A DNA stretch of 50,569 nucleotides, from the NCBI GenBank assembly GCA_044868105.1, contig JBIOWC010000122.1, positions 1 to 50,569 on the forward strand, written 5' to 3'. Source of the stretch: Blastocatellia bacterium (lineage in GTDB: Bacteria; Acidobacteriota; Blastocatellia; UBA7656). The notes below the pieces were generated by a model, which was not told where the DNA came from, searched no databases, and worked only from the letters and a program-made list of their open reading frames with translations. The position numbers and the translations under genes are program-made. Of this stretch, positions 18,627 through 47,366 are shown one piece after another (position 1 is the first letter of the stretch; each line of letters starts with the position of its first letter).

Positions 18627-18637
18627 TTTTAATCCAG

Positions 18638-18695
18638 TATAGGTCACTGACCGGAATTTTAATATTTGAAGTTTCAACCCATTTTCGAGTGGTGT
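18638..18695 (-). repeat. Copy A, distal segment of the duplicated upstream module
   Basis: tataggtcactgaccggaattttaatatttgaagtttcaacccattttcgag matches tataagccactgaccggaatttttagatttgcagtttcaaaccatttcgag at 25517-25570. Confidence 0.6.
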
Positions 18696-18735
18696 TTTCT
18701 TTTGTTGGGTTTATGTTTCATCAGAATATAATTTT

Positions 18736-18912: not shown

Positions 18913-18928
18913 TGATAAAACTCCTTAA

Positions 18929-26534: not shown

Positions 26535-26623
26535 CAAGATATATGATTACGCTGACCTGGTCTTTCTTCAAGTGCGCTTAACGACCTGTTCACCCAGTAG
26601 AAAACAAACCCGGTTAAAAATAT

Positions 26624-26642
26624 TTCGATTTTCAAAAGCGAA
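26624..26642. promoter_or_regulatory. Imperfect 19-bp palindrome in the crp/ric divergent region
   Basis: TTCGaTTTTcAAAAgCGAA, with 8 of 9 arm positions complementary. It may be an operator, but no regulator can be assigned. Confidence 0.25.
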
Positions 26643-26659
26643 AACTTACCAATCTTGCC

Positions 26660-26675
26660 TGTGATTTAAGTCACT
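26660..26675. promoter_or_regulatory. CRP/FNR-family type box TGTGA-N6-TCACT
   Basis: tgtgatttaagtcact is centred about 70 bp upstream of the ric ATG and about 130 bp upstream of the divergent Crp/Fnr gene. The adjacent regulator has an R-E-x-x-S-R recognition helix. Confidence 0.45.
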
Positions 26676-26736
26676 GCCCTGAGCCAGGAACTCCGATAAG
26701 CTTGACGGGTAAAGGAAATTTAATATTGGAGAGATT

Positions 26737-27629: not shown

Positions 27630-27692
27630 AAGCGCCTTCCGCTTCGGTTGCCGGATGATAAGAAATAATGAGAGGTCTGCAAGTCTGAGTTG

Positions 27693-28706
27693 ATGATCAA
27701 TAGATTGCCAATCATCAATGTTATCGGGTACTCGAATAGCGGCAAGACCCGCTGCATCGTCGAGCTGGTTGCTATCTTAACGCGTCGCGGTTACAAGGTC
27801 GCCACCGCCAAGCATTGTCATGAAGGGTTCCAACTCGATCTTGAAGGGAAGGACTCCTGGAAACATAAACAGGCTGGCGCGGTCGCTACTTTTCTATCCG
27901 GCAACGGACAGATTGGCCTCATTCAAGATATGGGCGAATCCCTGCCGTTGCAATTTATCGCCGGGCGGTTTATCCGAACGGCGGATCTTTTACTGGCCGA
28001 AGGCTTCAGTTGGGAACCAACCCCTAAAATTCTTGTCGTTAAGGGAACGAAATTCGCGGCCGCAAAGCACGCTTCAAGCGACACCCTGTTTGCATTGGTT
28101 TGCGACGAACGACTGGATGCTTCGCTGCCACAGTTCAATTTTTCTCAGCTCGAACAACTGGCAACCCTGATCGAACAGCACTTTTTGACCGCTCTCCCAT
28201 CTATCTCATCGCAAGAACCCATAAATGCCAATGAGGTGCTGCCGGCGTCTCCCTCAAGTTTTCTCTCTTTACTGGCAACGCACGCTCATCTGGACGCTCT
28301 GTTCCTGCATCATCAAGAAGCCCTCCTGGCCTTGGATGTGGCATCCGCCCTGCAAACGCTAACGGAATATCAGCAATCGCTTTATGCGCATATGCGATAT
28401 GAGGAGGCATTGTTGCTGCCGGTCTATGAACGCGCCGGGCGCATTCAAGGCGGCGCAGTCGAATTTTTTACTGGCGAGCATAAGCGGATGCGCGAAATGC
28501 TTGAGCGCATCGAGGAAGCGCTTAACCATCTATGGAGAAGTCCTGCGGATTTGCGCCCTCACATCATCAAGCTGTTTGATAGGGAAGCCGTTTTCAAACA
28601 ACTGGTAGAGCATCACGATCAGCGCGAGCGCAATATCTTCTATCCCACGCTCGACAAGGTTACAAGCGAAGCGGAGCGTCGAACCTTACTCGAACATCAT
28701 CCGTAG
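27693..28706 (+). CDS. mobB: MobB (molybdopterin-guanine dinucleotide biosynthesis adapter) fused to a C-terminal hemerythrin-like (HHE) domain
   Basis: N-terminal ~170 aa: VIGYSNSGKTRCIVELVAILTRRGYKVATAKHCHEGFQLDLEGKDSWKHKQAGA...LLAEGF (P-loop MobB). C-terminal ~150 aa carry His/Glu-rich helices: LFLHHQEALL, FFTGEHKRMREMLERIEE and LVEHHDQRERNIFYPTLD. Confidence 0.8.
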   Translation: MINRLPIINVIGYSNSGKTRCIVELVAILTRRGYKVATAKHCHEGFQLDLEGKDSWKHKQAGAVATFLSGNGQIGLIQDMGESLPLQFIAGRFIRTADLLLAEGFSWEPTPKILVVKGTKFAAAKHASSDTLFALVCDERLDASLPQFNFSQLEQLATLIEQHFLTALPSISSQEPINANEVLPASPSSFLSLLATHAHLDALFLHHQEALLALDVASALQTLTEYQQSLYAHMRYEEALLLPVYERAGRIQGGAVEFFTGEHKRMREMLERIEEALNHLWRSPADLRPHIIKLFDREAVFKQLVEHHDQRERNIFYPTLDKVTSEAERRTLLEHHP

Positions 28707-28858
28707 CGCCCGGCCATCAGCAAGGGCAGAGGCGCTTTGTTGTGACTTTATGGGCTTGGTGAGATAGCTTCATTGATAAGGTGAGCGACTCGCTTATCGA
28801 AGACCGGTTCTCACCAGGGCACAAAGCACACACCATAAAACTAACCTGAGTTTGATCT

Positions 28859-28877
28859 AAAAAAGCCCCGAAGGGGC
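28859..28877 (-). terminator. Rho-independent terminator for the minus-strand nar-act-narK transcript
   Basis: On the minus strand this reads GCCCCTTCGGGGC followed by TTTTTT. It is the last of a series of hairpins downstream of the narK-domain stop (29095). Confidence 0.6.
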
Positions 28878-28930
28878 GCGGGTTCAATAGCCCTGTGCCA
28901 CGCGCCGGGTAGGTTTGGAGCAGTTCCTTT

Positions 28931-29043
28931 GGAGCCCTGAAGGGGCGAAGGCCGATTTCTTTCGCCCCTTCAGGGCTCCGAGGACCGCTTACCGGTTACT
29001 CCAGGGCGTTGCCCTGGGCTGTTGAATGTCGCCCCTTTGGGGC
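28931..29043. repeat. Cluster of GC-rich perfect hairpins (REP-like)
   Basis: A 19-bp perfect stem is formed by ggagccctgaaggggcgaa (28931-28949) / ttcgccccttcagggctcc (28961-28979). Further hairpins are ccagggc-gtt-gccctgg (29001-29017) and gcccc-ttt-ggggc (29031-29043). Confidence 0.8.
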
Positions 29044-29094
29044 TGATCTCCTCCTTCATTATCGTTAGGTCGAACTCACATTAAACCTTAAGCT

Positions 29095-31461
29095 TTAGGC
29101 CGCCGCCGCTTCATAGCGTTCGCCTTTGTGGCGCAGGAAGACGAAATAATTCATCGCTAAACACAGCAACGCGAAGCCTGAAAGAAAGACGAAGCCTAGG
29201 GCGTAAGAACCTGTCTGCCCGCGAATCAAGCCTAAAACCAGCGGCGGGAAAAAACCGCCGAGTCCGCCCGCCGCGCCCACCAACCCGGTGATTGTGCCGG
29301 TCTCTTTCGGGAAATATTCCGGCACCAATTTAAAGACCGCGCCGTTGCCCGCGCCTAACATTGCCGCGCATCCCAATGCCCCTGCGGTAAAGAGAATCAT
29401 ATTTGATGAAGTCAGTCCGAGCGCCAAAATCGCTATGCCTGCGAGAACAAAAAACAACACCTGCGCGCCGCCAAATTTATCTGCCAGTCCGCCGCCAAAC
29501 GGTCGCATAGCGGTTGCGACAATCACAAAGCCCGCGACCCGCGCTCCCGCATCTGTCATCGTCAATCCGAAAATATCTTTGAGCAACGTCGGCAAATAGA
29601 TGCTCAAAGCGACGAATCCGCCAAAGGTCAGGAAATAGAATAATGACAGGATCCAGGCAATCGGCTCGCGTTTTAGAATAGCGAAATATTCGCCGAGCTT
29701 TTTCGGCGGCGCTTTCACCGCAGCGTTGCGGGCAAAGATCAAAAACACCAGGCCGAATAAACCGGCCGCCGCGCCGAAAACCCAGAACGGCACTCGCCAG
29801 TTTCCGGTTGCCGCAACCAGAGCCGGCGCGCCGAACACCGCGATGGATTGCCCGATGTTACCCATGCCGTAAACCCCCAGCGCGATGCCTTGTTGATGTG
29901 CAGGAAACCATTTCGAGGTGAACGATACGCCTACCGAAAAGCTCATTCCGGCAAAGCCCAGCAAAAAACCCCAGCCTATCAACGCCGCGTAAGAGTTACT
30001 GAAACTGGCGCCGATTGCCGGAAGCAAACAAAAACATAAAAGCAAGCCGAACACTTTGCGCCCGCCATATTTGTCCGCCAGAATTCCCAAAGGCAAACGA
30101 CCGAGCGAGCCTAAGAGCACGGGCACGGCGATCAGCATAGAAGTTTGCACTGGCGTGAGGTTGTACAGTTCACGAAAGCGCGGAGCCAGCGACCCCAGTA
30201 ATCCCCACACCGCAAAGGTAACGGCGAAACCGAGGGTTGATAGCGCCAGCGCGCGATAGGCCTTCGCGTCCCAGGCAATATGGTCTTCGGGCGTTTCATA
30301 AGCCTGCAGCGCCAGGCTCTCCGACAAATAGGGGTCGTGTTTTGGCAACACCGCGGCTTTCTGCAAACCTTTAACAAACGCCCAGATAAAGAGCGCCGCA
30401 AAGCCTAGGCCTAGCGCGAGGTCAATGAAACCTGGCACCGCCGAAAGCCCCAGCGCCGGATAAATCATCACGTACAAATCCAGCCCATGACCGACCAGGA
30501 CAATCGCGCAAGCCCACAGCAGCAAGGTCTCGCTGCGTTTGGCGCGGCGCGAAATCAACAAGGCAAAAGGAATCAGCCAGTTTAAAAACAGATTGAGCAG
30601 AAAGAAAAATTTCCAGCCGCCGGTTTGCGTGCGGCGGATGTAATAGACCGCCTCTTCGGGAATGTTGGCGTAATAAATCAACAGATATTGCGACAGCCAG
30701 ATGTAGGCCCAGAAGGTCGAAAAACCAAAAACCAGTTTGCCAAGGTTGTGCAGATGGTCTTCGTTGAGTTGCGGCAACACGCCGCGCCGGCGCAACACGA
30801 TAGCCAGCACGGCGATTGCCGCGATGCCGCTCAAAAACAATCCTGAAAAGCAATAAAAGGCATAAATCGTGCTGTAGAACTCGGCTTCCAAAGACATCAG
30901 CCAATCGAAACTTGCGAGTGAAAAAGTCACCGCGAAAACCGCCAGAAAAATCGCTGACAGTTTTTTGCTCCGCATCGTGCGCCGTGGCGAATCGTCTTCA
31001 TCTTGCTTGTGCGATTCTCTGACCATCAGCCAGGCGAATAAAACCCACAACGCCAGGATGACAACCATGCGCCCAAAGAAAAACGGCGTATTCAAAAACG
31101 CCAGTTTCATCTTCATCCCGGCGCTGGCCTCCGCCAGCGAAAGATGCGTCCATTCGTAGAGCCGGTATCTGCCCAAGAAGATGGCCAGCATAGCGATGGC
31201 GCCAAACGGCAGATAATTCATCATCGCTTCCGGTATGCGGCGAATGACCGCGCTCCAGCCGGCGTTCGATACGTGATAGATGCTCAAAAAAACCATCGCG
31301 CCAAGCGCCAGCGTCAAAAAATAAAACCCGTTGAGCAACACCGCTGCCCACGCTCGCGTGCTTGCGAAGATGAATCCGACAAGCAAGCCAAGCGCGCCAA
31401 CCATGAATGACGTCGTCAAAATTTTCTGCTCGCGTTCGGTGATCAATGCCTGGTTTGCCAT
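29095..31461 (-). CDS. actF-narK: Fusion protein: alternative complex III subunit ActF (NrfD-like polytopic membrane domain) + NarK-type MFS nitrate/nitrite transporter
   Basis: One uninterrupted frame. The ATG at 31461 (MANQALITEREQ) lies 20 nt after the actE stop, with GGAG 9 nt upstream. Residues to about 400 form multi-TM ActF, ending ...LPKHDPYLSESL. From about residue 420 the sequence is MFS: GILADKYGGRKV, GVYGMGNIGQS and GAGNGAVFKLVPEYFP. Confidence 0.8.
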   Translation of the reverse strand: MANQALITEREQKILTTSFMVGALGLLVGFIFASTRAWAAVLLNGFYFLTLALGAMVFLSIYHVSNAGWSAVIRRIPEAMMNYLPFGAIAMLAIFLGRYRLYEWTHLSLAEASAGMKMKLAFLNTPFFFGRMVVILALWVLFAWLMVRESHKQDEDDSPRRTMRSKKLSAIFLAVFAVTFSLASFDWLMSLEAEFYSTIYAFYCFSGLFLSGIAAIAVLAIVLRRRGVLPQLNEDHLHNLGKLVFGFSTFWAYIWLSQYLLIYYANIPEEAVYYIRRTQTGGWKFFFLLNLFLNWLIPFALLISRRAKRSETLLLWACAIVLVGHGLDLYVMIYPALGLSAVPGFIDLALGLGFAALFIWAFVKGLQKAAVLPKHDPYLSESLALQAYETPEDHIAWDAKAYRALALSTLGFAVTFAVWGLLGSLAPRFRELYNLTPVQTSMLIAVPVLLGSLGRLPLGILADKYGGRKVFGLLLCFCLLPAIGASFSNSYAALIGWGFLLGFAGMSFSVGVSFTSKWFPAHQQGIALGVYGMGNIGQSIAVFGAPALVAATGNWRVPFWVFGAAAGLFGLVFLIFARNAAVKAPPKKLGEYFAILKREPIAWILSLFYFLTFGGFVALSIYLPTLLKDIFGLTMTDAGARVAGFVIVATAMRPFGGGLADKFGGAQVLFFVLAGIAILALGLTSSNMILFTAGALGCAAMLGAGNGAVFKLVPEYFPKETGTITGLVGAAGGLGGFFPPLVLGLIRGQTGSYALGFVFLSGFALLCLAMNYFVFLRHKGERYEAAAA

Positions 31462-31481
31462 AATCTGAGTGCTCCAAACTT

Positions 31482-32042
31482 TTATCTGCCTTGCAAATTG
31501 CGGATGTACAGAATCACTTTCCAACGGTCATTAACCGAAACCTGTGCAGCATGCGCCGGCATATCTTTGCGCCCCAGGGTGATGACATGAAACATACTGC
31601 CGTCCGGCAAATTTCTTGAGGTTTCGGTTTTGTACGAAGGCGGATTCGGATACTTGGGAATCATCGCGCCATCGCCGCCACCCGTTGCCCCGTGACACGC
31701 CGCGCAATAATTGGAAAAGATGTACTGCCCGCGCGCTAAATTTTCCGGCGTCGTGGCAAACGGATTTTTCAACTCGCGTCCGGCTCTCGCCGCTTCCTCT
31801 TCGCTCACGCCGTAATGGAAAGGCCGATGCCCTCTCGGGATGGTTCCTTCGACCGGCAGTTGTTCGGTCATCTGATTCGGCAACACCGGATTCGAGGTTT
31901 GCGAAAGGTAGGCCGGCGAGTATTGCATCTGCGTCGTCCACTCGCGATTTCGCACCGTCGCGTCCCAACCGAGCAGATAAACGCCGCCGCAAACCATCAC
32001 CGGCAACAGGATGACTGATAACCATTCGAGCGTTTTTTTCAT
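31482..32042 (-). CDS. actE: ACIII monohaem cytochrome c subunit ActE
   Basis: N-terminal TM anchor, a single CAACH haem motif, and position after actD. ATGA-type overlap with actD. Confidence 0.8.
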   Translation of the reverse strand: MKKTLEWLSVILLPVMVCGGVYLLGWDATVRNREWTTQMQYSPAYLSQTSNPVLPNQMTEQLPVEGTIPRGHRPFHYGVSEEEAARAGRELKNPFATTPENLARGQYIFSNYCAACHGATGGGDGAMIPKYPNPPSYKTETSRNLPDGSMFHVITLGRKDMPAHAAQVSVNDRWKVILYIRNLQGR

Positions 32043-32581
32043 ACGAATTGATCTCCTTCGATGACGCGAATCGCCCCGTGTTTATTGACTATTTTCAACG
32101 CCCGCCGGGCATCGAAAGCGGCATCAGCCTGTTTCAAAACCAGCACGAAGCGGTCATCGGTCACGCGGTCAAAGGTCAATTTTTTGCTGAACAACCACAA
32201 ACGATTGCGGACCAGCAACACGCCGATGGCAATCAATCCTGAAAACAAGACCATCAATTCGAAGGTCACAGGGATAAACAGCGGAAACGAATTGAACGGT
32301 TTGCCGCCGACGTTCAAAGGCCAATCGTAAGCCGAAGTCCACACCTGCAAACCCAACCCAAACGTTAAGCCTACGGCTCCGGCGATGAAGGCAATCCAGG
32401 TCAGCTTCGAGCGTTTCAACCCGACGGCCTGATCCAGGCCATGAACCGGAAACGGGGTGAACGCATCGTGAATCTCAAATCCCGATTCGCGCGCCTCAAT
32501 CGCCGCGGCTTTCAGATCATCTTCGCGTTTGAAATAGACAGCGACGTAGCGGACATTGGTTGAATCTTTAACGGCGAGCAT
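32039..32581 (-). CDS. actD: ACIII membrane subunit ActD (DUF3341-like)
   Basis: VAVYFKREDDLKAAAIEARESGFEIHDAFTPFPVHGLD followed by two TM segments. It overlaps actC by 14 nt. Confidence 0.8.
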   Translation of the reverse strand: MLAVKDSTNVRYVAVYFKREDDLKAAAIEARESGFEIHDAFTPFPVHGLDQAVGLKRSKLTWIAFIAGAVGLTFGLGLQVWTSAYDWPLNVGGKPFNSFPLFIPVTFELMVLFSGLIAIGVLLVRNRLWLFSKKLTFDRVTDDRFVLVLKQADAAFDARRALKIVNKHGAIRVIEGDQFV

Positions 32582-33974
32582 AATGCACCACCCCCTTGAT
32601 TTCGTTCATCGAGATAACCGGAAAGAGTCGCAAAAAGAGCAGGAAGAAAGTGAAGAACATGCCGAAACTTCCCAGCATAATCGTCACTTCGGTAATCGTC
32701 GGCGTATAACTCGCCCAGCTTGACGGCAGAAAATCGCGGTGCAACGAGGTGACGATAATCACGAAGCGCTCGAACCACATCCCTACGTTAATGAGAATCG
32801 AAAGCGTGAAAATTGCCGGTATGGTTGTGCGGATGCGTTTCGACCAGAAAAGTTGCGGCACGATGGCGTTGCAGGTCACCATCGTCCAATAGGCCCAGGC
32901 AAAGGGCCCCATCACCCGATTGATGATGACGAATGATTCATTGGGATTGCCGCTGTAAAAACCGATGAAGACTTCCGTGAGATAAGCGATAGACACAATC
33001 GAGCCGGTCAACAGCGTGACTTTGCACATATTCTCAAGGTGCTGCACGGTGATGTAATTTTCCAGATGAAGTAATTTTCTGACCGCAATCATTAAGGTCA
33101 TCACCATGGCGAATCCCGAAAAGACCGCGCCCGCGACGAAGTATGGCGGAAAGATGGTCGAATGCCAGCCCGGTATCACAGAGGTTGCGAAATCGAAACT
33201 GACGATGCTGTGCACCGAAAGCACCAGCGGTGTTGCCAAGGCCGCCAGCACCAGATAAACCGTTTCGTAACGCGACCAGGTGCGGTTCGAGCCATTCCAT
33301 CCGAGGCTCATCACTTGGTAAATGGCGCGTCGGAATTTCGACACCGTGCGGTCTCGCGCGGTCGCCAAATCGGGAATCAACCCCAGATACCAGAAGACCG
33401 CAGAGATGGTGAAATAAGTCGAAATCGCAAAGAAATCCCACACCAGAGGCGAACGAAAGTTGACCCACAAAGAGCCCCGTTGATTCGGATAGGGTAGGAT
33501 CCAGTAAAACAGCCACGGACGCCCCATATGAATCACCGGAAAAATCCCCGCGCACATCACGGCAAACAAGGTCATCGCTTCTGCCGAACGATTCACAGAA
33601 GTGCGCCATTTCTGATTGAACAAAAAGAGAATCGCCGAAATGAACGTTCCGGCATGCCCGATGCCAATCCAAAACACAAAGTTGGTGATGTCGAAAGCCC
33701 AGCCGACGGTTTTGTTCAATCCCCAGGTGCCGATGCCGGTGTTTACGGTGTGCGCGGTGGCGATAATGCCGGCGCACATCACAACGAAAGCCGAGAGGAA
33801 AGCGATCCACCAGCCGACGCCGGGTTTTTTATCAAGCAGGCTACAGATGTCTTCGGTGACTTCGCCGTAACTTTTGTCGCCTTCGATTAAAGGCTTGCGT
33901 AGCGCCGAAACGACTTCGTGCGAAGCCTCGTGCGGGCGCTCTTCGTGAGTGATTTTTTCAAACGCAACAGCCAT
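32568..33974 (-). CDS. actC: ACIII quinol-interacting membrane subunit ActC (NrfD/PsrC family)
   Basis: 468 aa, about 10 TM segments, NrfD-like. It starts 2 nt after the actB stop. Confidence 0.88.
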   Translation of the reverse strand: MAVAFEKITHEERPHEASHEVVSALRKPLIEGDKSYGEVTEDICSLLDKKPGVGWWIAFLSAFVVMCAGIIATAHTVNTGIGTWGLNKTVGWAFDITNFVFWIGIGHAGTFISAILFLFNQKWRTSVNRSAEAMTLFAVMCAGIFPVIHMGRPWLFYWILPYPNQRGSLWVNFRSPLVWDFFAISTYFTISAVFWYLGLIPDLATARDRTVSKFRRAIYQVMSLGWNGSNRTWSRYETVYLVLAALATPLVLSVHSIVSFDFATSVIPGWHSTIFPPYFVAGAVFSGFAMVMTLMIAVRKLLHLENYITVQHLENMCKVTLLTGSIVSIAYLTEVFIGFYSGNPNESFVIINRVMGPFAWAYWTMVTCNAIVPQLFWSKRIRTTIPAIFTLSILINVGMWFERFVIIVTSLHRDFLPSSWASYTPTITEVTIMLGSFGMFFTFFLLFLRLFPVISMNEIKGVVHYARR

Positions 33975-33976
33975 AG

Positions 33977-36900
33977 TTATGCCTTCTCCTCTTCGACATT
34001 TCGCACCTTTGCCAGATAACTGATTGCCGGTCGCAGGTTCAATTCTTCAAGCAAGATGAAATCGCGCCGGTCGTGTTTGAGCCGGTTCGCGCGGCTTTCC
34101 AGATTGACTAAATCGCCAAAGGTAATCGCCTGCGCGGGACAACTCTGCTGGCAAGCGGTTTGAATCTCGCCGTCTTTGATGTCGCGGGTTTCATTGCGCG
34201 CCTGAATTTTCGCTTCTTCGATGCGCTGAATACAGAAGGTGCATTTTTCCATCACCCCGCGAGTGCGAACCGTCACATCCGGATTGAGCGCGAGGTTGGC
34301 AATCGGGTCCGGATGTTGATACTCGAACCAGTTAAAGCGGCGCACCTTATAGGCACAGTTGTTGGCACAATAGCGCGTCCCGACGCAGCGATTGTAAACC
34401 TGCATGTTCAACCCTTCGCTGCTATGCACAGTCGCCAGCACCGGGCAGACGCTTTCGCACGAGGCGTTTTCACATTGCGAACACATCACCGGCTGATAAA
34501 TCACCTGCTCCTGGTTTTCATCCGCTTCATAGTAACGATCAATTCTCAGCCAGTGCATTTCACGTTGCCGCCATACTTCGTCTTTGCCGACAACCGGAAC
34601 ATTGTTTTCCGCCTGACAACTCAACATACAAGCCGAACAACCGGTGCAGGCGTTAAGGTCAACCACCATGGCCCACTTGTGTTCAGGGTACGCATGGTCT
34701 TGCCAGATGCTCTTAGAAGGTGCGGTATCGCCTTCGGTTTCGCGGTGACCGCTGACGATTTCAGCGAGCGATAATTCTTTGATAAGCGGCCTGCCATCTA
34801 GCGTATCGTGGCGCTGGGTCAATGCCAGTTCAACTTTAGCGAGCGTCTTTTCAAGGGTGATGTCGGAGCTTTGATACTGAAAAGTGCCGTTGTCGAAAGC
34901 CACCAAAGGATAAGCGTTCACGCCGATATGATTGCCAACTTTACCGGCTCGGGTTCTGCCGTAACCGACGGCGATGGCGACACAGTCGTCGTGTTGTTGC
35001 GCTTGAATGTAAACCGGAAGCTCGATTGCCGTATCGCCTTTGCTGATGCGAACCACGCGACCATTTTCGAGTTGCAACTTCGCGGCGAGCGCCGCCGAGA
35101 CGCAGGCGTAATTATCCCAGGTCACTTTGGTAATCGGGTCGGGCAACTCTTGCAGCCAGGGGTTGTTGGCCTGCGAGCCATCGCGCAACGCGAGCTTTTC
35201 GTAAAGCACAAGATGCAGTTTTCCCGCACCTTCATCGGCGCGCTGCGCCAAACGCTGGATAGCCGCGTGCAAATCATCTGTAACCAAAACGCCAGGTTCT
35301 GCCGGCGGTTTCGCTGTCGCTGCAGTCGTGATTTGCAACGAAGGTTTCGCTGCGGCAGCCGTTGCCGCCGACGTTGTTGAGGTTTTTGCCCTGGCGGTCA
35401 TCGCGGCGGGTGTTATGGAAGGTTTCGCTTCAATAACGAACACCCCATCGTGCAGCGCCTTATCCCAAAACTCGTCGAAACTTGTGTATTGGCTCTGTTG
35501 CGAAAAAATTTTCTCTTGCCAGCGCGCTCTTAGCACATCGTAGAATTTGCGCTCATCATTGCTCCAACGCAGCAAACTCTCTTGCCAGGCCCGCGTTTGA
35601 AACAGCGGCGCAATCGTCGGCTGGCTCAAACTGAGCGTGCCCGTCGCCGGCTCCGCATCATCCCACGATTCAAGCTGATGATGGCGCGGGCAGACGTAAT
35701 CAACCAGCGCAGAGGTTTCATCAAGGTAAGCGTTGAGCGAGACTTTCAAGCCGACTTTCGCCAGCCCGTTTCTGAATTCGCGGCTGTTGTAAAAATTATA
35801 AGCCGGATTCGCATCCACAATAATCAGAGCCGCGACTTCACCGGCGTTCATCTCGCGCACCAGTTCTTTTACATCGCTATCATTTTCAACGCGCTGGTCG
35901 GCGGCGCTCGGGACCTCAAGCGTCTTGCCATAATTGCCCAGCGTTTGATTGATGAAATTGATTAACTGCTGCGCATCCGTATCATTGGCTCCGCTGATGA
36001 CCAGCGATTCGCCGCGATGCTGCCATAAGGCTTCAGCGCTTTGCTCTATGGCGCGTCGAACTTTCGGCGACAGGTGTTCGCCGTTGATCGAAGTGAAATC
36101 ATTTTGCTTCGCGGCACTGGCTTTCGCGGCAATCAATTTTGCCAGCAGCAATAAAGCGAACATCTCTTCGGCCGGCGAAACCTTCACGCGCGTATCGGCG
36201 TTGCTGCCCGTGAGCGACAGGCGCGATTCAAACTGAAGGTGACGCGAAAACTCGGGCTTCTCGTTTTGCAGATTGCGTGCCTCCGCATAAGCGCGAGTGA
36301 ATTGCATCGGCGACAGCCAGGTGCCTAAAAAATCGGCGCCGAAACTCACAATCATTTTTGCTTTATCAAAATGAAAAACCGGCCGCGCCGCAACCCGGTG
36401 AGTTTTCAAATGCGCCGCGCCAATCGCCGCATTCGACACGGCGTTATAGACGAGGTGTTTGCCATTGGCGAATTGGTTAAGGAACGTATCAATGGTGTCG
36501 CGTGAAGTCGGGCTTGCGGTCGGTGAACCGAGCACCCGAACTTTGCCGCCCGATTGTTTAATCGTGGTCAACTGCCATTTAATTTGCTGATCAACATCTT
36601 CCCAGCTTGCCGCTTGCGATTTGATCAAAGGCTGACGCAGGCGTTCGCCATCATAAAGCCCGAACACCAGACTGTGAGCCACCGCGCACAGCCCGCCTTT
36701 GCTTAAAGGATGTTCGGCGTTGCCTTCGAGTTTGATCGGGCGACCGTCGCGCACTTTGACGAGCGTACCGCAAGCCGCATTACAGCCCCCGCAGGTGGAG
36801 GCGTACCAGTTGGCAACTCCCGGCGTCAGTTCTACGGGTTGCTTCAGATAAGGAATGATTTTCTGTTCAGGAGCGCGGCAACCGCTCAAGGCCGCCGCGG

Positions 36901-37030
36901 CAATCGAAAAGCCGACCAATTCGATAAACGTGCGGCGCGGCATCACTGCCCGTGGTCCATCGGTTGCCGCACAGGATTCTTCATCTGCGTCTTGCCGTTT
37001 GATGATTTGCCAAAGTTTCTCTACGGTCAT
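33977..37030 (-). CDS. actB: ACIII subunit ActB (Tat-signal, molybdopterin-oxidoreductase-like domain fused to 4Fe-4S ferredoxin domain)
   Basis: The ATG at 37030 (MTVEKLW) has AGAGGG upstream. Tat-like PRRTFIELVGFSIAAAAL. The C-terminal part has multiple Cys clusters (CTGCSACMLSCQAENN, CSQCENASCESVCP, CVGTRYCANNCAYKVRRF, CTFC...). The track start at 37090 would include an intergenic hairpin. Confidence 0.88.
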   Translation of the reverse strand: MTVEKLWQIIKRQDADEESCAATDGPRAVMPRRTFIELVGFSIAAAALSGCRAPEQKIIPYLKQPVELTPGVANWYASTCGGCNAACGTLVKVRDGRPIKLEGNAEHPLSKGGLCAVAHSLVFGLYDGERLRQPLIKSQAASWEDVDQQIKWQLTTIKQSGGKVRVLGSPTASPTSRDTIDTFLNQFANGKHLVYNAVSNAAIGAAHLKTHRVAARPVFHFDKAKMIVSFGADFLGTWLSPMQFTRAYAEARNLQNEKPEFSRHLQFESRLSLTGSNADTRVKVSPAEEMFALLLLAKLIAAKASAAKQNDFTSINGEHLSPKVRRAIEQSAEALWQHRGESLVISGANDTDAQQLINFINQTLGNYGKTLEVPSAADQRVENDSDVKELVREMNAGEVAALIIVDANPAYNFYNSREFRNGLAKVGLKVSLNAYLDETSALVDYVCPRHHQLESWDDAEPATGTLSLSQPTIAPLFQTRAWQESLLRWSNDERKFYDVLRARWQEKIFSQQSQYTSFDEFWDKALHDGVFVIEAKPSITPAAMTARAKTSTTSAATAAAAKPSLQITTAATAKPPAEPGVLVTDDLHAAIQRLAQRADEGAGKLHLVLYEKLALRDGSQANNPWLQELPDPITKVTWDNYACVSAALAAKLQLENGRVVRISKGDTAIELPVYIQAQQHDDCVAIAVGYGRTRAGKVGNHIGVNAYPLVAFDNGTFQYQSSDITLEKTLAKVELALTQRHDTLDGRPLIKELSLAEIVSGHRETEGDTAPSKSIWQDHAYPEHKWAMVVDLNACTGCSACMLSCQAENNVPVVGKDEVWRQREMHWLRIDRYYEADENQEQVIYQPVMCSQCENASCESVCPVLATVHSSEGLNMQVYNRCVGTRYCANNCAYKVRRFNWFEYQHPDPIANLALNPDVTVRTRGVMEKCTFCIQRIEEAKIQARNETRDIKDGEIQTACQQSCPAQAITFGDLVNLESRANRLKHDRRDFILLEELNLRPAISYLAKVRNVEEEKA

Positions 37031-37052
37031 AAGACCCTCTTTCGAGTGATAA

Positions 37053-37129
37053 GTGATGAGTGATGCGTTTTCAGAAGTGATCTTGCGCATCCACTTGCTT
37101 CACGTTTCTTCCTACTCATCACTCATCAC
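37053..37129. repeat. 13-bp perfect inverted repeat (gtgatga units) between actA and actB
   Basis: gtgatgagtgatg (37053-37065) pairs with catcactcatcac (37117-37129), with a 51-nt loop. Confidence 0.6.
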
Positions 37130-37133
37130 TTTT

Positions 37134-37721
37134 TCAATGATGACAAACCGAACAATCGGTTGAAGCCATCAATTTTTTCGTGGTCGCTTCTTTCGTGACC
37201 ACCGGTCGGCCCGCATCGTCCAACGTCACTTCGCGGTGAGTGCGATGACAGGCGACGCAATTGCCCATCAACAGTGGGTCGGCTTGTGAAACCCGGTCCA
37301 TGGTTTCTACTGCGCCGTGACATTGCTGGCATTGCAAACCTGCGACGACGTGACGGCTGTGATTGAATACTGCGTGGTCCGGTAAATCGTTGACCTTCAC
37401 CCATTCGATGGGTTTGTTCTCTTCCAGGGCGTGGGCAATCTTTTGAATTTCGGGCGAGTCTTTTAAAATCCGCTTGTGACAATTCATACAGGTTGACGCG
37501 GCGGGAATGCCTGCAACCTTCGATTTATCGGCGCCCGTGTGACAGTACAAACAGGCGATCTGGTTATCGCCGGCGTGCAGCTTATGGGAAAAGTTTATTG
37601 GCTGCACCGGCTCATAGCCTTGCTGATTGCCGAGCGAACTGAAGGTCGAGCCTTGCCACAAAACGATGGCGCCGATGATCGTAACCAACAACGAGATTAT
37701 TTTTGCGGTTCTCAAACTCAT
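37134..37721 (-). CDS. actA: ACIII pentahaem cytochrome c subunit ActA
   Basis: TM anchor plus five CxxCH motifs (CLYCH, CMNCH, CQQCH, CVACH, CSVCH). It starts 4 nt after the narI stop, and its GAGGTGA RBS overlaps that stop. Confidence 0.88.
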   Translation of the reverse strand: MSLRTAKIISLLVTIIGAIVLWQGSTFSSLGNQQGYEPVQPINFSHKLHAGDNQIACLYCHTGADKSKVAGIPAASTCMNCHKRILKDSPEIQKIAHALEENKPIEWVKVNDLPDHAVFNHSRHVVAGLQCQQCHGAVETMDRVSQADPLLMGNCVACHRTHREVTLDDAGRPVVTKEATTKKLMASTDCSVCHH

Positions 37722-37725
37722 CTTC

Positions 37726-38499
37726 TCACCTCGTAATTGCCGGACGATTAGTCGCCGCAGGTTCAGCGCTCAATGGCGCAGCGACCTCCATTGGTCGCGG
37801 TTTCGGGCGCAACGCATATCCGCGAAGCTTTTGGCGATTCCAATTCCACATCACCAGTTGATACGGCCGCCACAAATAAGGAATCGGCACAACCAACATA
37901 TGAACCAGACGCGAAAACGGAAAGACGGCAACTAACAACCAGGCGTTCAAGACGTGAAGTTTGATGGCCAAAGGCAACGGCGCGATCATTGCCAAATCAG
38001 GTTGCAGCGTAAACAACGAACGCAGATAAGGCGCTAAGGATGTCGCATACCACGAAGACCCCCAGCGATAGAAAATCGCAATAAAGATGCCGAGCCCGAC
38101 CTGGGTCAGCAACAGCAACAACACAACGATGTCCATCTTGGAAGTGACGGCGCGAATGCGCGCCGAGGTATGGCGGCGGATGATTAAATTCACCAGCCCC
38201 GCAAGCGACATCAAACCGAACAAAAGCGCGGTGCTTTCGAGCAGGTACAAACGCGCCGGTACGCCGTTAAACCACAAGACCTGTCGCGGAAACAGTAGGC
38301 CAATTAAATGCCCCAAAAAGAGGGCGAGGATGCCGATGTGCCACGACACCGAGCCGTAAAAGAGTTCGCCGCTTTCCAAAAATTGCGAGGACAGGCTGGA
38401 ATAGGTGAAAGGCTTTTTGAAATAGCGCTGCACCGTCACCACGGTTGCCAGAATGACTACCGCGTACGGAATGATAATGAAAAAAAGATTATCGTACAT
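37726..38499 (-). CDS. narI: Respiratory nitrate reductase gamma subunit (dihaem b, membrane)
   Basis: Five TM segments. N-terminus MYDNLFFIIIPYAVVIL...FYGSVSWHIGILALFLGHLIG carries the conserved His ligands. It has a ~35-aa C-terminal extension. Confidence 0.9.
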   Translation of the reverse strand: MYDNLFFIIIPYAVVILATVVTVQRYFKKPFTYSSLSSQFLESGELFYGSVSWHIGILALFLGHLIGLLFPRQVLWFNGVPARLYLLESTALLFGLMSLAGLVNLIIRRHTSARIRAVTSKMDIVVLLLLLTQVGLGIFIAIFYRWGSSWYATSLAPYLRSLFTLQPDLAMIAPLPLAIKLHVLNAWLLVAVFPFSRLVHMLVVPIPYLWRPYQLVMWNWNRQKLRGYALRPKPRPMEVAAPLSAEPAATNRPAITR

Positions 38500-38523
38500 A
38501 AACCCGTCCTCTCATTGAGCAAA

Positions 38524-39111
38524 TCAAAATGGATGCGCTTGCAAGACCGGCAAGGCGATAGCCCCACGCCCCGTCGTGGTTTCTACAGGTGCGCTCGCCG
38601 GCGGCGCTTCTTCTTTCAAGGTCGCGCCGATGGCGACCAGCAAACTGCCGTAAAGGTTCCCGGCTTTCTGCAAAGCCGCGGTCATTAAATCAAGCGCCGG
38701 AATCAGACATTCGGCGATTAAATCGCTGCGAAGTTCTGCATCTTCGAGTTTCACCAGCAGGCGCAACAGCACCGGCAAGTAATCGGGCAACTGGTGCGCT
38801 TGCCCTAAAGTAAACGGCGCTTCGGTTTCGCGCAGGTTCGCCAGAAAAACCCCGCGTTTATAATTTTCACCAAACAGGTGGTAGCCGATTTCCAGATTGC
38901 ATACGGGGTTCAAATCAAAGGTCTGCGTGTAGCGTTCCTGCAAGGTCGCCAGCGGCAAGCCTTCAACAGCCTGTAAAAATTCCAGCAGCAGCCCGGCGCA
39001 CGGCGTGGGCGAACTATTCATTGACCATTTGCAGTCAGCGACTCGCGCCTCCCAGTCAGCTGTTGGATAGTCGAGCAAATCGGCATAAATTTCATAAAGC
39101 TGATTCATCAA
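38524..39111 (-). CDS. narJ: Nitrate reductase molybdenum cofactor assembly chaperone
   Basis: YTQTFDLNPVCNLEIGYHLFGENYKRGVFLANL, and its position between narH and narI. Confidence 0.88.
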   Translation of the reverse strand: MMNQLYEIYADLLDYPTADWEARVADCKWSMNSSPTPCAGLLLEFLQAVEGLPLATLQERYTQTFDLNPVCNLEIGYHLFGENYKRGVFLANLRETEAPFTLGQAHQLPDYLPVLLRLLVKLEDAELRSDLIAECLIPALDLMTAALQKAGNLYGSLLVAIGATLKEEAPPASAPVETTTGRGAIALPVLQAHPF

Positions 39112-39138
39112 ATCCTCCCCATTTTTTGCGGCTCTGCT

Positions 39139-40632
<1,494 letters not shown>

Positions 40633-40643
40633 GTTAGTCCTCC

Positions 40644-40761
40644 GTCCTTAGTCCTTGAGTTTGTCATTCTTCATTCTCTATTTCCTCCCCAGTCATTTGC
40701 CTCTCACCATCCCTGCCATCCTGAAACCGGCTCCTGTAGCCAATTTCAAGGAACTAAGGAC
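40644..40761. repeat. Inverted repeat (aggacta units) in the 154-nt narG-narH spacer
   Basis: gtccttagtccttg (40644-40657) pairs with caaggaactaaggac (40747-40761). There is one bulge and a ~89-nt loop. Confidence 0.5.
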
Positions 40762-40786
40762 TAGAGGCCAAGGACCAGGGACTTCA

Positions 40787-44421
<3,635 letters not shown>

Positions 44422-44425
<4 letters not shown>

Positions 44426-45294
44426 TGTTTGTTCCTCCGCACCAGTTCTTCGCGCACCCCGCGAAGGCGGTTTTTCCAGATGCGATTGAGCGCCACAAAG
44501 GACAACACCAGCGCCAGAAAACCAACGGCCGGAAACCATAAATTGAGCGGCGCGGTTGCCGGTTGGGTTTGCGCCGCCGGATAGGCGAACTTGGCGTTTT
44601 GAAAATAAGCGAAGAGTTTGACAATCTCTTCATCGGTCAAAGGTTTGGTGCCGAAGACGCTTTTCATTGTCGGGAAATTCGGGTTCTGTAAAATCGAAAT
44701 CAACTCCGGGTCTTTGTACTTGGTGTTGACGGCCGTCAAATTGGGACCCAGTGTGCCTCCGCCGAACCGGCCTATATCGTTGACGCTGTGACAGGCGATG
44801 CAGGAAGTGCCGCCGTTTTGGAGCCCGGTTTTGCCGGCGAAGGTTTCACGCCCCGCGTCAATATCACCGGCTTCGATGGGGCGGCTCAATTTCGCGCCGG
44901 CCGGGATAAAGGTTTCGCCTTTCTTGGTAAGCGATTCAATCAACGAAAGGACGCCGTCAATCTGTTCGGGCGTAAGCGGCTGGTCAGGCATCACTTCGGG
45001 AGCGAATTTCTTAAAGAGCGCGTTGGCATCCGGGTCGCCTTTGCGATTCATTGCGGCGGGCGATTGAATGAACTGGTGCAGCCATTCTTTCGAGCGTCGC
45101 TCCATCACGCCTTTCAAATCCGGTCCTTTTTTGTCGCCGCCGTTGATGTTGTGGCAACTGTAACAGCTCTTCTCGAAAGTCACGGCGCCGGCTGGCGTCG
45201 TTTGCGCCAATGTGGGTTCCGATACGGCAGCGAGCCATAGAAAAACGCCAATCAAGGCGGTCAATATTTTGCATTTGATTTTTCTGTCTAGCAT
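44422..45294 (-). CDS. narC: Membrane-anchored dihaem cytochrome c, NarC-like (first structural gene of the nar operon)
   Basis: The ATG at 45294 gives the signal peptide [25 protein letters not shown]. Two haem motifs are present, CYSCH and CIACH. C-terminal [22 protein letters not shown]. This architecture and position match Thermus thermophilus narC as I recall it. Confidence 0.75.
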
Positions 45295-45308
45295 AAACCG
45301 ACTCCGAA

Positions 45309-45788
45309 TTATTCTTCGTTGCGCTGTGCCAGCAAGCCGCGACCTGAGCGCTGACTTGCAGCGCTTTTCAGGGCGTTCAATTCGCTGCTTGAAGTTGCCA
45401 ACTCGGCGATCGTCTTGTGTTGCAATAGCTCGACAAAAGCTTTGCGCCACTGCTGCCAGTCTTCGTGCAGTGCGCAAGAGTCTGGCGCGTGACACATTCC
45501 GCAACCGAGTATGCACTCGTCGAGATAGGGGTCTGGCTCAAGGACCTGGAAGACTTCCCACAAGGTGATGTTTTGCGGCAAACGCGCCAGTTCATAACCG
45601 CCATGTAATCCTTTGACCGAGCGTAGCAGGCGATGACGCCGCAGTTCGCCGAGCACTTTGCGCAAATAGACTGGAGGAATCCGTTCTTGTTCGGCGATCT
45701 CTTGCGAACCGCAAAGCCCTGAATCCGGCTGACTCGCCAGATAAGCAAGGGCGCGAATTCCATAAGCGGTAGTCTTGGATAAAATCAT
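45309..45788 (-). CDS. Rrf2-family transcription regulator (NsrR/IscR-like, Cys-containing)
   Basis: The ATG at 45788 opens MILSKTTAYGIRALAYLA (Rrf2 wHTH). A Cys cluster CILGCGMCHAPDSC is present. It ends 12 nt before the narC-like start. Confidence 0.85.
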   Translation of the reverse strand: MILSKTTAYGIRALAYLASQPDSGLCGSQEIAEQERIPPVYLRKVLGELRRHRLLRSVKGLHGGYELARLPQNITLWEVFQVLEPDPYLDECILGCGMCHAPDSCALHEDWQQWRKAFVELLQHKTIAELATSSSELNALKSAASQRSGRGLLAQRNEE

Positions 45789-45860
45789 TGCGGATACCTT
45801 TACAAACGGACCTCTTTGTCCTCTATCATCACTTTTCGGCAGATACGGAACAATAATCAC

Positions 45861-45884
45861 GGTTCATCATTTTCGTGATGAACC
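45861..45884. promoter_or_regulatory. Perfect 9-6-9 palindrome about 75 bp upstream of the Rrf2 start
   Basis: GGTTCATCA-ttttcg-TGATGAACC. An overlapping TCACG-N12-CGTGA alternative exists. Confidence 0.4.
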
Positions 45885-45977
45885 TGTTAAAGTCGGGCGA
45901 CGGGCGAGAACCTATCTCAGCGAAATGAATGAGCTAGAGCGAATGGCTCATCGGATTGCTGAAAGGTGGAGGGGCAA

Positions 45978-46322
45978 GGCTCGTAGGGGAAAACCAGCAG
46001 GCTCAGGGTGTCCCAAAGACTGCGGCAACCGTCAGGGTCGTAGGAATACCATCAGGCTCACGCTCAGGGTTTAGCTTCCCCGCTGATCGGGCGGAGGCGG
46101 CCGGTGAACGCGGATTTTTAAGGCTCGGTTATCCACATAGATCGTAAGAGTCAAGCATTCGCGTTGATGGTGAGGGTCAAGCATCTGCGTTGATCGGCTC
46201 CTTCAGCATGATCAGCGGGGAAGCCCCAAGGTGAACATCCGACTCGTGGATTTTCCCTGAGCCCGCTCACCCATACGACCTCCTCTCGCTGATTTTCCCT
46301 GAGCCCGCTCATCCTTACTTCC
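45978..46322. repeat. ~350-bp composite palindrome: two ~30-bp units, a 13-bp inverted repeat enclosing a 19-bp tandem repeat, then two inverted units
   Basis: Left units ...cgtagg..ag(c/g)aggctcaggg lie at 45978-46008 and 46035-46069. The 13-bp inverted repeat is ttccccgctgatc (46076-46088) / gatcagcggggaa (46210-46222). The tandem repeat gtcaagcatNNgcgttgat lies at 46150-46168 and 46176-46194. Right units gattttccctgagcccgctca.cc lie at 46249-46280 and 46291-46322, in the opposite orientation. Confidence 0.7.
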
Positions 46323-46640
46323 GCCGCTCGCTGAGGTTGCCTGCGACCTCACGGCAGCTTCAAAAAGCACTTCGCCGAAGCGCACCACCAGGGTTCTTGC
46401 TGACCACAGTAAAGCCAATCGCCATTCGCCACAGGCGTTGCAGGCAGAAGACAAGCTGTAAAATTCAGTGGTAAGAAATTGGTAGGGAGGTTGAAGACGC
46501 GTCAATCTCTGCCGAAAGCCGCTGTGCACTCCTGACAGAGATTAATTCAAAACCACGGCGCTCTGCTTTTGAGGGTCGGTGTTGAGCAATGGGTTAAGCC
46601 AGAGTAGGGATTACCACTTGCGTTCTCCCGCAAACGGTAT

Positions 46641-47366
46641 TCAGATCAAGCCAGCATGCTCGGCGCGACGGATAGCTTCCAGACGAGTGTGCGCGTTGAG
46701 CTTGCGTAGGATATGTTGAATGTGGTTATTGACGGTCGTTCGACTGATGAACAGTTGACTGGCAATGGTTGCTGTGGTCGAGCCTTTGGCGAGCAAACGC
46801 AACACTTCAATTTCACGTACGGAAAGCTCCGTATCGTGCGCCGGGGAGCGCGTCGAAGAGATGAGGGTGGTGACCTGTTCGGCCGGCAAGTGGGTTCCGG
46901 TCACGACGAAATCGCGCACCAGCAATTCAAGACGCTTGCGCATGTCAATCGGACGGATGATGTGGATCGCATAAGGCCAGGCAGAGGTCGCTTCACCGGC
47001 AATCAACACGGATATATTGCACCATTGCCGAGCTTCTCCAATCTTGACCTGCAAATCGAAATTGCCAACCGGATGATGCCGGCGAACCGATTGCTTAATC
47101 GTGCAGTCAGGCGAACATACGGGGCCGCATTCATCAATGCCTTGCAGGATCTGGCCGCAGGCCTTGCCTAGGGCTTCTTTAGCCGGCAATTTGAACAGCT
47201 CTTCGGCGGCCCGGTTCCAGGCAACAATCAAGCCTTCGCCATCCACCGCAAACGCAGAATCCGAGGTGCTTTCAACCAATTTTTTGATCTCTCGCAGTCG
47301 CATCTTTTCAATCGGATTATAAAATTGATGTGCCCGGATTATTGCTCCAATAGCCTCAAAAAGCAA
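46641..47366 (-). CDS. PAS-domain + LuxR/FixJ-type HTH one-component regulator with a CX9CX3CX3C motif
   Basis: C-terminal [45 protein letters not shown]-terminal PAS-like [22 protein letters not shown], then [19 protein letters not shown]. The track start is TTG 47366; an alternative ATG is at 47303. Confidence 0.8.

Follow-up and report, generated by a model that had tools for sequence, protein, structure and literature searches.

Why should a complete alternative complex III (ACIII) be encoded in the middle of a nitrate reductase operon? The act gene clusters of ACIII have been described as followed by oxidase genes, and an ACIII-caa3 supercomplex is known (PMC5928083). The question is raised by a contig of a Blastocatellia bacterium (JBIOWC010000122.1, assembly GCA_044868105.1; "the window" denotes the whole stretch analysed, 50,569 nt), in which 12 co-directional minus-strand open reading frames (ORFs) at 29095-45788 encode 13 modules in the order Rrf2, NarC, NarGHJI, ActABCDE and ActF::NarK, the last two in one fused protein. 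The arrangement is far beyond chance, and the identical order is found in six other lineages (relatives' loci, numbered with an L, were taken as 10 kb on either side of the match). On balance, and taking these statements together, we consider it probable that the locus (~17 kb), which belongs to an uncultured acidobacterium with ties to Blastocatellia, forms one operon for nitrate respiration, that a complete ACIII was recruited into a Thermus-like narC-narGHJI-narK operon, and that the products would form an anaerobic module in which NarGHI reduces nitrate and ACIII provides a parallel, proton-pumping branch from quinol to cytochrome c.

Gene content and layout of the nar-act string

The first-pass annotation of this DNA had read thirteen minus-strand genes uninterrupted by any gene on the opposite strand. 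The co-directional string is borne out, and no opposite-strand ORF with homology support lies in the region, but the count is 12 ORFs; thirteen is reached by counting the fusion as two genes. All gene identities that it had named were recovered at their positions on the minus strand through Pfam, NCBIfam and PDB-chain matches, and the tight co-directional packing holds when the junctions are read directly in the sequence.

The string opens with an Rrf2 regulator gene (45309-45788, with its ATG at 45788; TIGR00738, 113 bits against a cut-off of 73). Its stop is followed after 14 nt by the narC ATG at 45294, which is also where homology to the related locus L001 begins. The narC product (44422-45294, 290 aa; PF00034/PF13442) is a dihaem class-I cytochrome c of the NarC type with a signal peptide, two CXXCH motifs and a C-terminal transmembrane (TM) anchor. 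The GTGA overlap of narC and narG noted earlier is correct if narG begins at the in-frame GTG at 44425, just downstream of which homology begins; the longest narG ORF, starting at 44539, would overlap narC by 118 nt. NarG (40787-44425 or 44539; TIGR01580, 1536 bits, cut-off 1084), the Fe-S subunit NarH (39139-40632; TIGR01660, 651 bits, cut-off 524), the chaperone NarJ (38524-39111; TIGR00684, 71.5 bits, cut-off 59) and the dihaem b membrane subunit NarI (37726-38499; TIGR00351, 119.7 bits, cut-off 105.6) all score above their NCBIfam equivalog cut-offs. NarG is devoid of a Tat signal and is therefore cytoplasmic. In NarI, aligned to 3egw_C and 1q16_C, all four histidine ligands of haem b (H56, H66, H187 and H205 in Escherichia coli) are conserved.

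Only 4 nt separate the narI stop (TGA, 37728-37726) from the actA start (ATG at 37721), and the actA ribosome-binding site, GAGGTGA, sits over the narI stop. The following genes encode ACIII in canonical order, actA to actF, all co-directional; when each product was compared by phmmer with all PDB chains, its best solved-structure match was the corresponding ACIII chain. ActA (37134-37721; 6btm_A, E 1.6e-39) is a pentahaem cytochrome c with five CXXCH motifs and an N-terminal TM helix. ActB (33977-37030 or 37090) matches 6lod_B with E 3.6e-185 and 6f0k_B with E 4.4e-180, its matches to solved ActB chains spanning E 1e-172 to 1e-185. It carries a Tat-like twin-arginine motif (RRTF), a lipobox Cys71, a molybdopterin-like B1 domain and a B2 domain with four Fe-S cluster motifs. 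The quinol-oxidising, NrfD-type membrane subunit ActC (32568-33974; 6btm_C, E 1.2e-186) begins 2 nt past actB. It is followed by ActD (32039-32581; PF11821, 182 bits, cut-off 25.7), whose gene overlaps actC by 14 nt and actE by 4 nt; these short junctions, too, are as first read. ActE (31482-32042; 6btm_E, E 4.9e-26) is a monohaem cytochrome c anchored through its N-terminus, so that the CXXCH count gives five haems in ActA, one in ActE and two in NarC. The last ORF (29095-31461) joins an ActF domain (residues 1-385, 30307-31461; 6f0k_F, E 6e-58) to a NarK domain (residues ~391-788, 29095-30291; PF07690, 155 bits; NarU/NarK structures, E ~1e-18). Beyond it, a strong intrinsic terminator on the same strand, GCCCCTTCGGGGC followed by T6 (28865-28877), closes the operon. 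Neither actG nor actH was seen at the locus.

These proteins share with the solved ACIII of Rhodothermus marinus, Flavobacterium johnsoniae and Roseiflexus and with the 8k9e entry (6F0K, 6BTM, 6LOD and 8K9E) the same six subunits in the order ActA-ActF, the five-haem ActA and one-haem ActE, the Tat signal, lipobox and four B2 Fe-S motifs of ActB, and 10 TM helices each in ActC and ActF. In R. marinus, His139, Asp169 and Asp253 were named as quinol-pocket residues, and Ser245 of ActC and Tyr284 of ActF as coupling residues (PMC5928083). H139, D169 and D253 are conserved in the ActC of the window together with S245, and Tyr284 is conserved in the ActF part of the fusion. The window differs from the solved complexes in that its act genes are set between narI and narK and not before caa3 or cbb3 oxidase genes, in the fusion of ActF to NarK, in the retention of the cysteines of an additional cluster (FS0, below) and in the apparent lack of actG and actH. 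A candidate considered and rejected is the Qrc complex: the NCBIfam models QrcA, QrcB and QrcC score 76, 169 and 219 bits against cut-offs of 180, 440 and 400, all far below. The QrcABCD menaquinone reductase of sulfate reducers does resemble ACIII in having a multihaem cytochrome, a cofactor-less molybdopterin-like subunit, a four-cluster protein and an NrfD subunit, and partial Qrc matches are found; the window, however, has ActD, ActE and ActF, and its best matches are true ACIII chains.

Two longer spacers, on which the first-pass annotation is silent, interrupt the packing. The actA-actB spacer of ~100 nt contains a very stable hairpin (37045-37130; dG -36.6 kcal/mol, z -5.0) with arms of (AGTGATG)x2, and the ActB start is likely the ATG at 37030, because the hairpin engulfs the ATG at 37090; homology agrees. 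The narG-narH spacer (40633-40786, 154 nt) contains a long-range inverted repeat and heptamer-like repeats, with a predicted fold of dG -52 kcal/mol (z -2.8), and shrinks to 14-46 nt in L006 and L009. In both spacers heptamer-like direct repeats, (AGTGATG)x2 in one and AGTCCTT/AGTTCCTT in the other, make up the long hairpins; the two equivalent spacers measure 6-46 nt in L006 and L009. The spacers look like lineage-specific inserted repeat elements, and their hairpins could serve as sites of mRNA stability or processing.

Conservation of the linkage and the ActF::NarK fusion

The order narGHJI-actABCDE-actF::narK is kept in L001, L006, L009, L012, L013 and L014, with narI-actA gaps of 4-7 nt and fusion proteins 63-86% identical to that of the window; L001 additionally retains Rrf2 and narC. 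The fusion protein is 788 aa long (the longest ORF has 809 codons). Its ActF half is full length, the alignment reaching residue 416 of the 417 of R. marinus ActF (6f0k_F), and NarK homology starts ~6 residues further on. An AF2 model of the fusion (pLDDT 82) has 10 + 12 TM helices, the two sets being connected by a short linker of ~13 residues (386-398) that is modelled with low confidence. The NarK half, of the NNP family of MFS transporters, finds its best PDB matches in the NarU/NarK structures 4iu8, 4u4t and 4jr9, and it has the NS1 motif GxxxDxxGxR in the form GILADKYGGR; its TIGR00886 score of 224 bits is under the cut-off of 312.

Proteins of this kind form >120 clusters at 90% identity, full-length at ~788 aa, 60-94% identical and all in one clade, and their named sources are metagenome-assembled genomes (MAGs) of Acidobacteriota, Blastocatellia and Pyrinomonadaceae. 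In an exhaustive phmmer search of 1.84 billion 50%-identity representatives only one cluster spans both halves, so the fusion is a single lineage-specific event; the remaining matches are stand-alone ActF (<=50% identity) or stand-alone NarK (<=63%). The database label of the fusion proteins is 'MFS transporter' only. ActF has its two termini on the cytoplasmic side and lies at the edge of ACIII (PMC5928083); for these two reasons a docked NarK domain would not clash with the complex. We infer that, through the fusion, nitrite leaves and nitrate enters the cell right beside ACIII, and that ACIII and transporter are fixed at 1:1.

Unfused versions of the linkage were found outside this clade of fusions. 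Metagenomes were scanned with an alignment of ActA, and of at least 592 loci the best 80 were typed by tblastn, a biased sample that yields no prevalence: narGH is present in 4, a NarI match on contigs too short upstream for narGH to be checked in 12, a NarI-like protein without narGH in 2, a cytochrome c only in 14 and none of these in 37, and 11 loci were too short. True narGH(J)(I) stands directly 5' of actA in L035, L045, L050 and L053, and a probably true NarI occurs on the short contigs L015, L034, L043 and L063. The order in L035 is narC-narGHJI-actABC-actDE-actF-narK, with narI and actA overlapping by 4 nt and narK unfused, which looks like the pre-fusion state. In L045, L050 and L005 narK lies between narI and actA, the last of these, from a Pirellulales MAG, reading narGHJI-narK-actA..F. 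Some ACIII operons also join ActD and ActE in a single ORF (L035, 15230-16360, 376 aa; L096, 16554-17645, 363 aa). A genome-contig scan with narrow ActB peptide patterns confirmed five loci, too few to tell how frequent the arrangement is, and none of them came from a cultured isolate.

In a neighbour-joining tree of ActC and ActB (46 taxa, 1361 columns) all nar-linked ACIII fall in one clade with a bootstrap of 1.00, which L004 and L067, whose upstream DNA is missing, also join. The nar-act linkage therefore arose once and was passed on or transferred as a block. Convergent assembly of nar and act in two phyla, which had been considered, is rejected on this monophyly, as far as a neighbour-joining tree of 46 taxa can show it.

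The linkage has in part been seen before. Suarez et al. (2023) reported nar upstream of the same six-gene cluster 13 times, in Planctomycetota and KSB1 MAGs; the cluster was not recognised as ACIII, and a new nitrite reductase was proposed (PMC10732223). These 'NrfD-like complex' clusters have nar 5' of genes for a pentahaem cytochrome, a 4Fe4S-molybdopterin fusion, NrfD, ActD, a monohaem cytochrome c and a second NrfD-like subunit (PMC10732223). L005 has the same layout, and its ACIII belongs to the window's clade; clusters of this type differ from the window in their unfused narK and in their phylum. The first-pass remark that an ACIII inside a nar operon is unusual thus stands against the characterised, oxidase-linked ACIII, but the arrangement is not rare, given the large Acidobacteriota clade, the unfused versions and the 13 Planctomycetota/KSB1 cases. 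The synteny runs through a large clade of uncultured Acidobacteriota. In the literature, many subscription papers being out of reach, nothing was found on the fusion of ActF with NarK, on this acidobacterial clade, or on two features described below, FS0 in ActB and the cytochrome c::NarI-ACIII operons.

These data bear on the simplest alternative, that nar and act are neighbours only. The act genes would then encode a general complex III with aerobic uses too, expressed from a promoter of their own inside narI, and the synteny would be co-location. ACIII elsewhere acts as an aerobic or photosynthetic complex III (PMC5928083, PMC10100899), and the structured spacers within the operon fit this alternative as well. 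We nevertheless regard it as very unlikely: the narI-actA junction stays at 4-7 nt or overlaps while NarI identity falls to ~53-90%, the act genes are sandwiched between narI and narK, ActF is covalently joined to NarK, and nar-linked ACIII form a clade of their own.

Proposed electron flow between quinol, cytochrome c and nitrate

The template for the proposed module is the narCGHJIK(T) operon of Thermus thermophilus, reportedly worked out by Zafra, Cava and Berenguer, with its NarC-containing nitrate reductase; Thermus NarC has reportedly been proposed to connect Nar with the pool of cytochrome c that serves subsequent steps of denitrification. The window resembles that operon in the gene for an anchored dihaem cytochrome c directly 5' of narG, in the cytoplasm-facing NarGHJI and in NarK at the 3' end. 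It differs in the six act genes between narI and narK and in the leading Rrf2 gene, and its NarC is likened to that of Thermus by haems, anchor and gene position.

In the module that we favour, the putative Fe-S Rrf2 protein encoded by the first gene would free the promoter when oxygen is lacking or when NO or nitrite is present, and an FNR/CRP-type regulator encoded nearby is probably also involved. The NarK domain would bring nitrate in and nitrite out, and the cytoplasm-facing NarGHI would reduce nitrate with menaquinol oxidised at NarI. In parallel, ACIII would oxidise menaquinol at ActC and pump protons, its electrons passing through FeS1 and the ActA haems to ActE and on to the membrane-anchored NarC and other periplasmic cytochromes c. 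From these cytochromes electrons may reach periplasmic reductases that act on the exported nitrite and its products and that would, in this genome, be encoded outside the window. What speaks for the module is that its parts are intact, that ACIII retains its quinol site and NarI its haem ligands, that 4 nt separate narI and actA, and that the arrangement is inherited as a unit. In L009, from a Blastocatellia MAG (GCA_035575515), a multihaem cytochrome of the HAO/hydrazine-dehydrogenase family is encoded 10 nt after the fusion gene (12371-13711; PF13447, 105 bits), and the idea of a parallel branch is supported by this gene. Beyond it lie a sigma-54 two-component system and then a cluster for a cytochrome c, a Rieske/cytochrome b complex and a multihaem cytochrome (17665-21042).

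Several points weigh against this module. The NarG sequence fits nitrate reduction and nitrite oxidation alike, and none of the genes nir, nor, nos and nrf lies in the 50-kb window. The Rieske/cytochrome b complex nearby in L009 means that ACIII is not the sole possible route from quinol to cytochrome c there. The structured narG-narH and actA-actB spacers could decouple the expression of operon segments, and a sigma-70 consensus scan of 28600-46700, with 8 sites against 10.3 expected, is uninformative on an internal promoter inside narI. The first-pass proposal of a quinol-to-cytochrome c branch for denitrification hence keeps its plausibility through the HAO-family cytochrome of L009 and finds no nir, nor or nos partner in the window; it is to be read as inference. 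That ACIII may donate electrons for the reduction of N2O has been suggested (as cited in PMC9270275).

The NarC and NarI neighbours of actA bear on how the two complexes might exchange electrons. Flavobacterium ActA has an additional haem domain at its N-terminus (6btm_A, residues 55-153), and this domain resembles the first domain of the window's NarC (residues 35-135; E 3.5e-07). A separate gene for a NarC-like cytochrome c just upstream of actA was observed in 14 of the 80 metagenomic ACIII loci, and in L002 from the genome scan. To judge by such cases, a class-I cytochrome c ahead of ActA seems to be a common ACIII accessory. In Kofleriaceae (Myxococcota), a single protein of ~545-620 aa that fuses a cytochrome c to a NarI-like cytochrome b heads the ACIII operon in four loci: L024 (8093-9958) and L069 (8049-9935), where it has ~620 aa, L095 (10001-11632), where it ends 3 nt before actA, and L096 (10001-11629). 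Neither NarG nor NarH was found within 10 kb in L024 and L069, and the same pattern was seen on eight further short contigs (L017, L019, L020, L025, L027, L028, L062 and L077). This protein family (~555 aa) comprises >120 clusters, mostly named Kofleriaceae, and is mislabelled 'respiratory nitrate reductase subunit gamma' in databases. The Kofleriaceae operons are like the window in having an ACIII of the FS0 type and, just 5' of actA, a NarC-like cytochrome c and a NarI-family cytochrome b. They are unlike it in lacking NarG, NarH, NarJ and NarK, in carrying cytochrome c and NarI in one protein and in having a gene for a Big_5-domain protein (~940-990 aa) after actF. In these operons, as far as their sequences tell, a NarC/NarI-type module accompanies ACIII even without NarGH.

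Such an association raises the possibility of series coupling, in which ACIII would be the main quinol oxidase for nitrate reduction and electrons would run from ActC through the ActA/ActE haems and NarC to the b haems of NarI and on to NarH and NarG; alternatively, NarC/NarI and ACIII might exchange electrons both ways. ACIII proton pumping would then add to the charge separation of NarI and raise the H+/e- ratio of nitrate respiration. Besides the occurrence of NarC/NarI-type proteins with ACIII where NarGH is absent (L024, L069, L095 and L096, with the same pattern on the eight short contigs), the membrane anchor of NarC speaks for this scheme, as does the Arg of the window's NarI that aligns with Lys86, essential in the quinol site of E. 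coli NarI. On the other hand, the haem ligands of NarI are all present and the residue in place of Lys86 is still a basic one, and its own quinol site may well be intact. The b haems of E. coli NarI are lower in potential than c haems, which would make the step from c to b uphill, and in Thermus, NarC is assumed to take electrons from Nar and not to deliver them. We hold series coupling to be unlikely and the parallel branch to be the better account.

The B1 domain of ActB sets the nar-linked ACIII apart from the characterised ones. It keeps a complete FS0 motif, C100-x2-C103-x3-C107-x27-C135 (CX2CX3CX27C), and the [4Fe-4S] cysteines of FS0 are replaced by other residues in all four solved ActB chains (6F0K, 6BTM, 6LOD and 8K9E). 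FS0 is kept in every nar-linked ActB among the collected loci, is found also in L069, L071, L024, L094, L026, L080 and L087, and is missing from 29 collected loci, mostly of one large separate clade. Retention of a Mo cofactor in B1, which was also considered, is unsupported: the PF00384 and PF01568 profiles are as weak in FS0-type ActB as in FS0-less ActB, and residues 135-467 hold no Cys able to act as a Mo ligand. We predict a fifth Fe-S cluster and no Mo cofactor in the ActB of the window. The role of FeS2-4 has been called 'elusive', and this wire may serve an external partner (PMC5928083); it is exactly the FeS2-4 wire that FS0 would lengthen.

The same motif is the starting point of another alternative, namely that the Act-like complex is itself a periplasmic reductase, for instance of the nitrite exported by NarK, with a catalytic or redox-active B1 domain. 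The full FS0 motif in all nar-linked ActB, its absence from the four solved cofactor-less chains, and the MobB gene adjoining the operon point that way. The role of a FeS2-4 wire pointing at B1 is an acknowledged open question (PMC5928083), and a catalytic function was essentially raised for the Planctomycetota clusters (PMC10732223). Against it stand the equally weak PF00384/PF01568 matches of both ActB types and the lack of a Cys for Mo at 135-467; MobB is accounted for by NarG, FS0 also occurs in ACIII loci without nar (L094 and L026), and each of the six subunits is closely homologous to true ACIII. We judge a catalytic ActB to be distinctly unlikely.

The first-pass annotation had also raised a Nar-ACIII supercomplex. 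This is speculative. The idea has one solid point in its favour, of which the first-pass annotation made too little: ActF is covalently joined to NarK, and the fusion is kept in >120 clusters. In its boldest form, the locus would encode a distinct FS0-bearing ACIII subtype that is a physical 'nitrate respirasome', with NarK docked on ActF, NarC bridging the ActA/ActE haems to NarI, and the FS0-extended FeS2-4 wire as a second electron path; we give this picture a small chance. If it were true, ACIII and NarGHI would exchange electrons directly, in series or in a branch, with a proton yield above that of the classical NarGHI redox loop, and the cytochrome c::NarI-ACIII operons of Kofleriaceae would represent this coupling device minus its reductase head.

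Regulation, reaction direction and wider meaning

The Rrf2 protein has a cysteine cluster (C92/C96/C99/C105) with H108, which suggests an Fe-S sensor resembling NsrR or IscR. It falls below the NCBIfam equivalog cut-offs for NsrR (59 bits against 182), IscR and RirA and passes the superfamily model only. At 45861-45884, 73 nt upstream of the Rrf2 ATG, lies a perfect palindrome, GGTTCATCA-N6-TGATGAACC (minus strand; 0.18 matches expected by chance), a candidate operator within the promoter region of the operon. In L001 it is kept only as its right half-site, plus flanking promoter-like sequence. No FNR/DNR box, TTGAT-N4-ATCAA with <=1 mismatch, was matched across the whole window.

Beside the operon, a minus-strand gene for a CRP/FNR-family regulator stands divergent from a gene for a YtfE/RIC di-iron Fe-S repair protein (window 25845-27462; TIGR03652, 247 bits for the latter), a typical NO-stress pair. 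Between this pair and the operon, on which it converges, lies a plus-strand gene for MobB fused to a C-terminal hemerythrin/RIC-like domain (27690-28706); L013 has separate hemerythrin and MobB genes at that position. Genes for hemerythrin, MobB, YwiC, HPP and TDT proteins recur beside the operon in relatives.

This context matters for the direction of the NarG reaction. By sequence, it is the NO and anaerobic regulon context alone that would favour nitrate reduction. Read the other way, the NarGHI-like complex would be a cytoplasm-facing nitrite oxidoreductase, as in Nitrobacter, with NarC passing electrons to an oxidase and ACIII running backwards from cytochrome c to quinone. Nitrobacter-type nxr clusters share an upstream cytochrome c gene, narJ, narI, narK and a TDT/SLAC1-type transporter; a TDT-family gene lies directly downstream in L006, and reaction direction is not assignable by sequence alone. 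The reverse mode is nonetheless highly improbable in view of the anaerobic and NO-stress context (Fe-S Rrf2, CRP/FNR, YtfE/RIC, hemerythrins and YwiC) and of the window and the fetched relatives having no oxidase or carbon-fixation gene; moreover, the lineage, Acidobacteriota/Blastocatellia, is known as heterotrophic.

Three further features of the surroundings were observed. An Acido-Lenti-1 RNA motif (RF01687) lies at window 29000-29044 on the plus strand, with 39.2 bits against a gathering score of 37. It sits between the actF::narK stop and the terminator, on the strand opposite to the operon, alongside a perfect long hairpin (~28931-28979). It is the sole Rfam match in the window and is missing from six related loci, and is therefore outside the conserved unit. 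Proteins with FG-GAP/ASPIC-UnbV (and TPR) domains are encoded near the operon in the window (3664-5478, 8368-12033 and 12124-13920) and in L013 (17635-22370), suggesting that synteny reaches past the operon in the lineage of these two. Finally, G+C content, elsewhere ~0.50-0.58, jumps to 0.70 at window 20001-22000, inside a minus-strand ORF (18929-22555, 1208 aa) with weak Peptidase_M1 and ABC-2 membrane matches only.

Altogether, the locus probably encodes an ACIII adapted to nitrate respiration, in an arrangement that is conserved, widespread in uncultured lineages, partly noticed before and experimentally uncharacterised. New are the FS0 cysteines in ActB and the cytochrome c::NarI-like fusion heading NarGH-less ACIII operons in Kofleriaceae. 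ACIII has been treated in the literature as the complex III stand-in of aerobic and photosynthetic chains: a MopB survey describes ActB as cofactor-less and acting 'exclusively in aerobic respiration' (PMC10100899), a planctomycete description infers an aerobic role from oxidase linkage (PMC6995999), and one survey dates the rise of oxygen by it. A large and conserved ACIII clade hard-wired into a nar operon, with a NarK fusion, points to a dedicated anaerobic role of ACIII in abundant uncultured Acidobacteria of soil and groundwater and in Planctomycetota. The labels 'MFS transporter' and 'nitrate reductase gamma subunit' hide ACIII and mislead predictions of nitrogen cycling from metagenomes. 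ActF::NarK is a natural tether for testing the joint assembly of transporters and respiratory complexes, and FS0 in ActB might account for the 'elusive' second wire of Fe-S clusters in ACIII. The recurring association of NarC/NarI with ACIII suggests a mode of coupling that has not been described.

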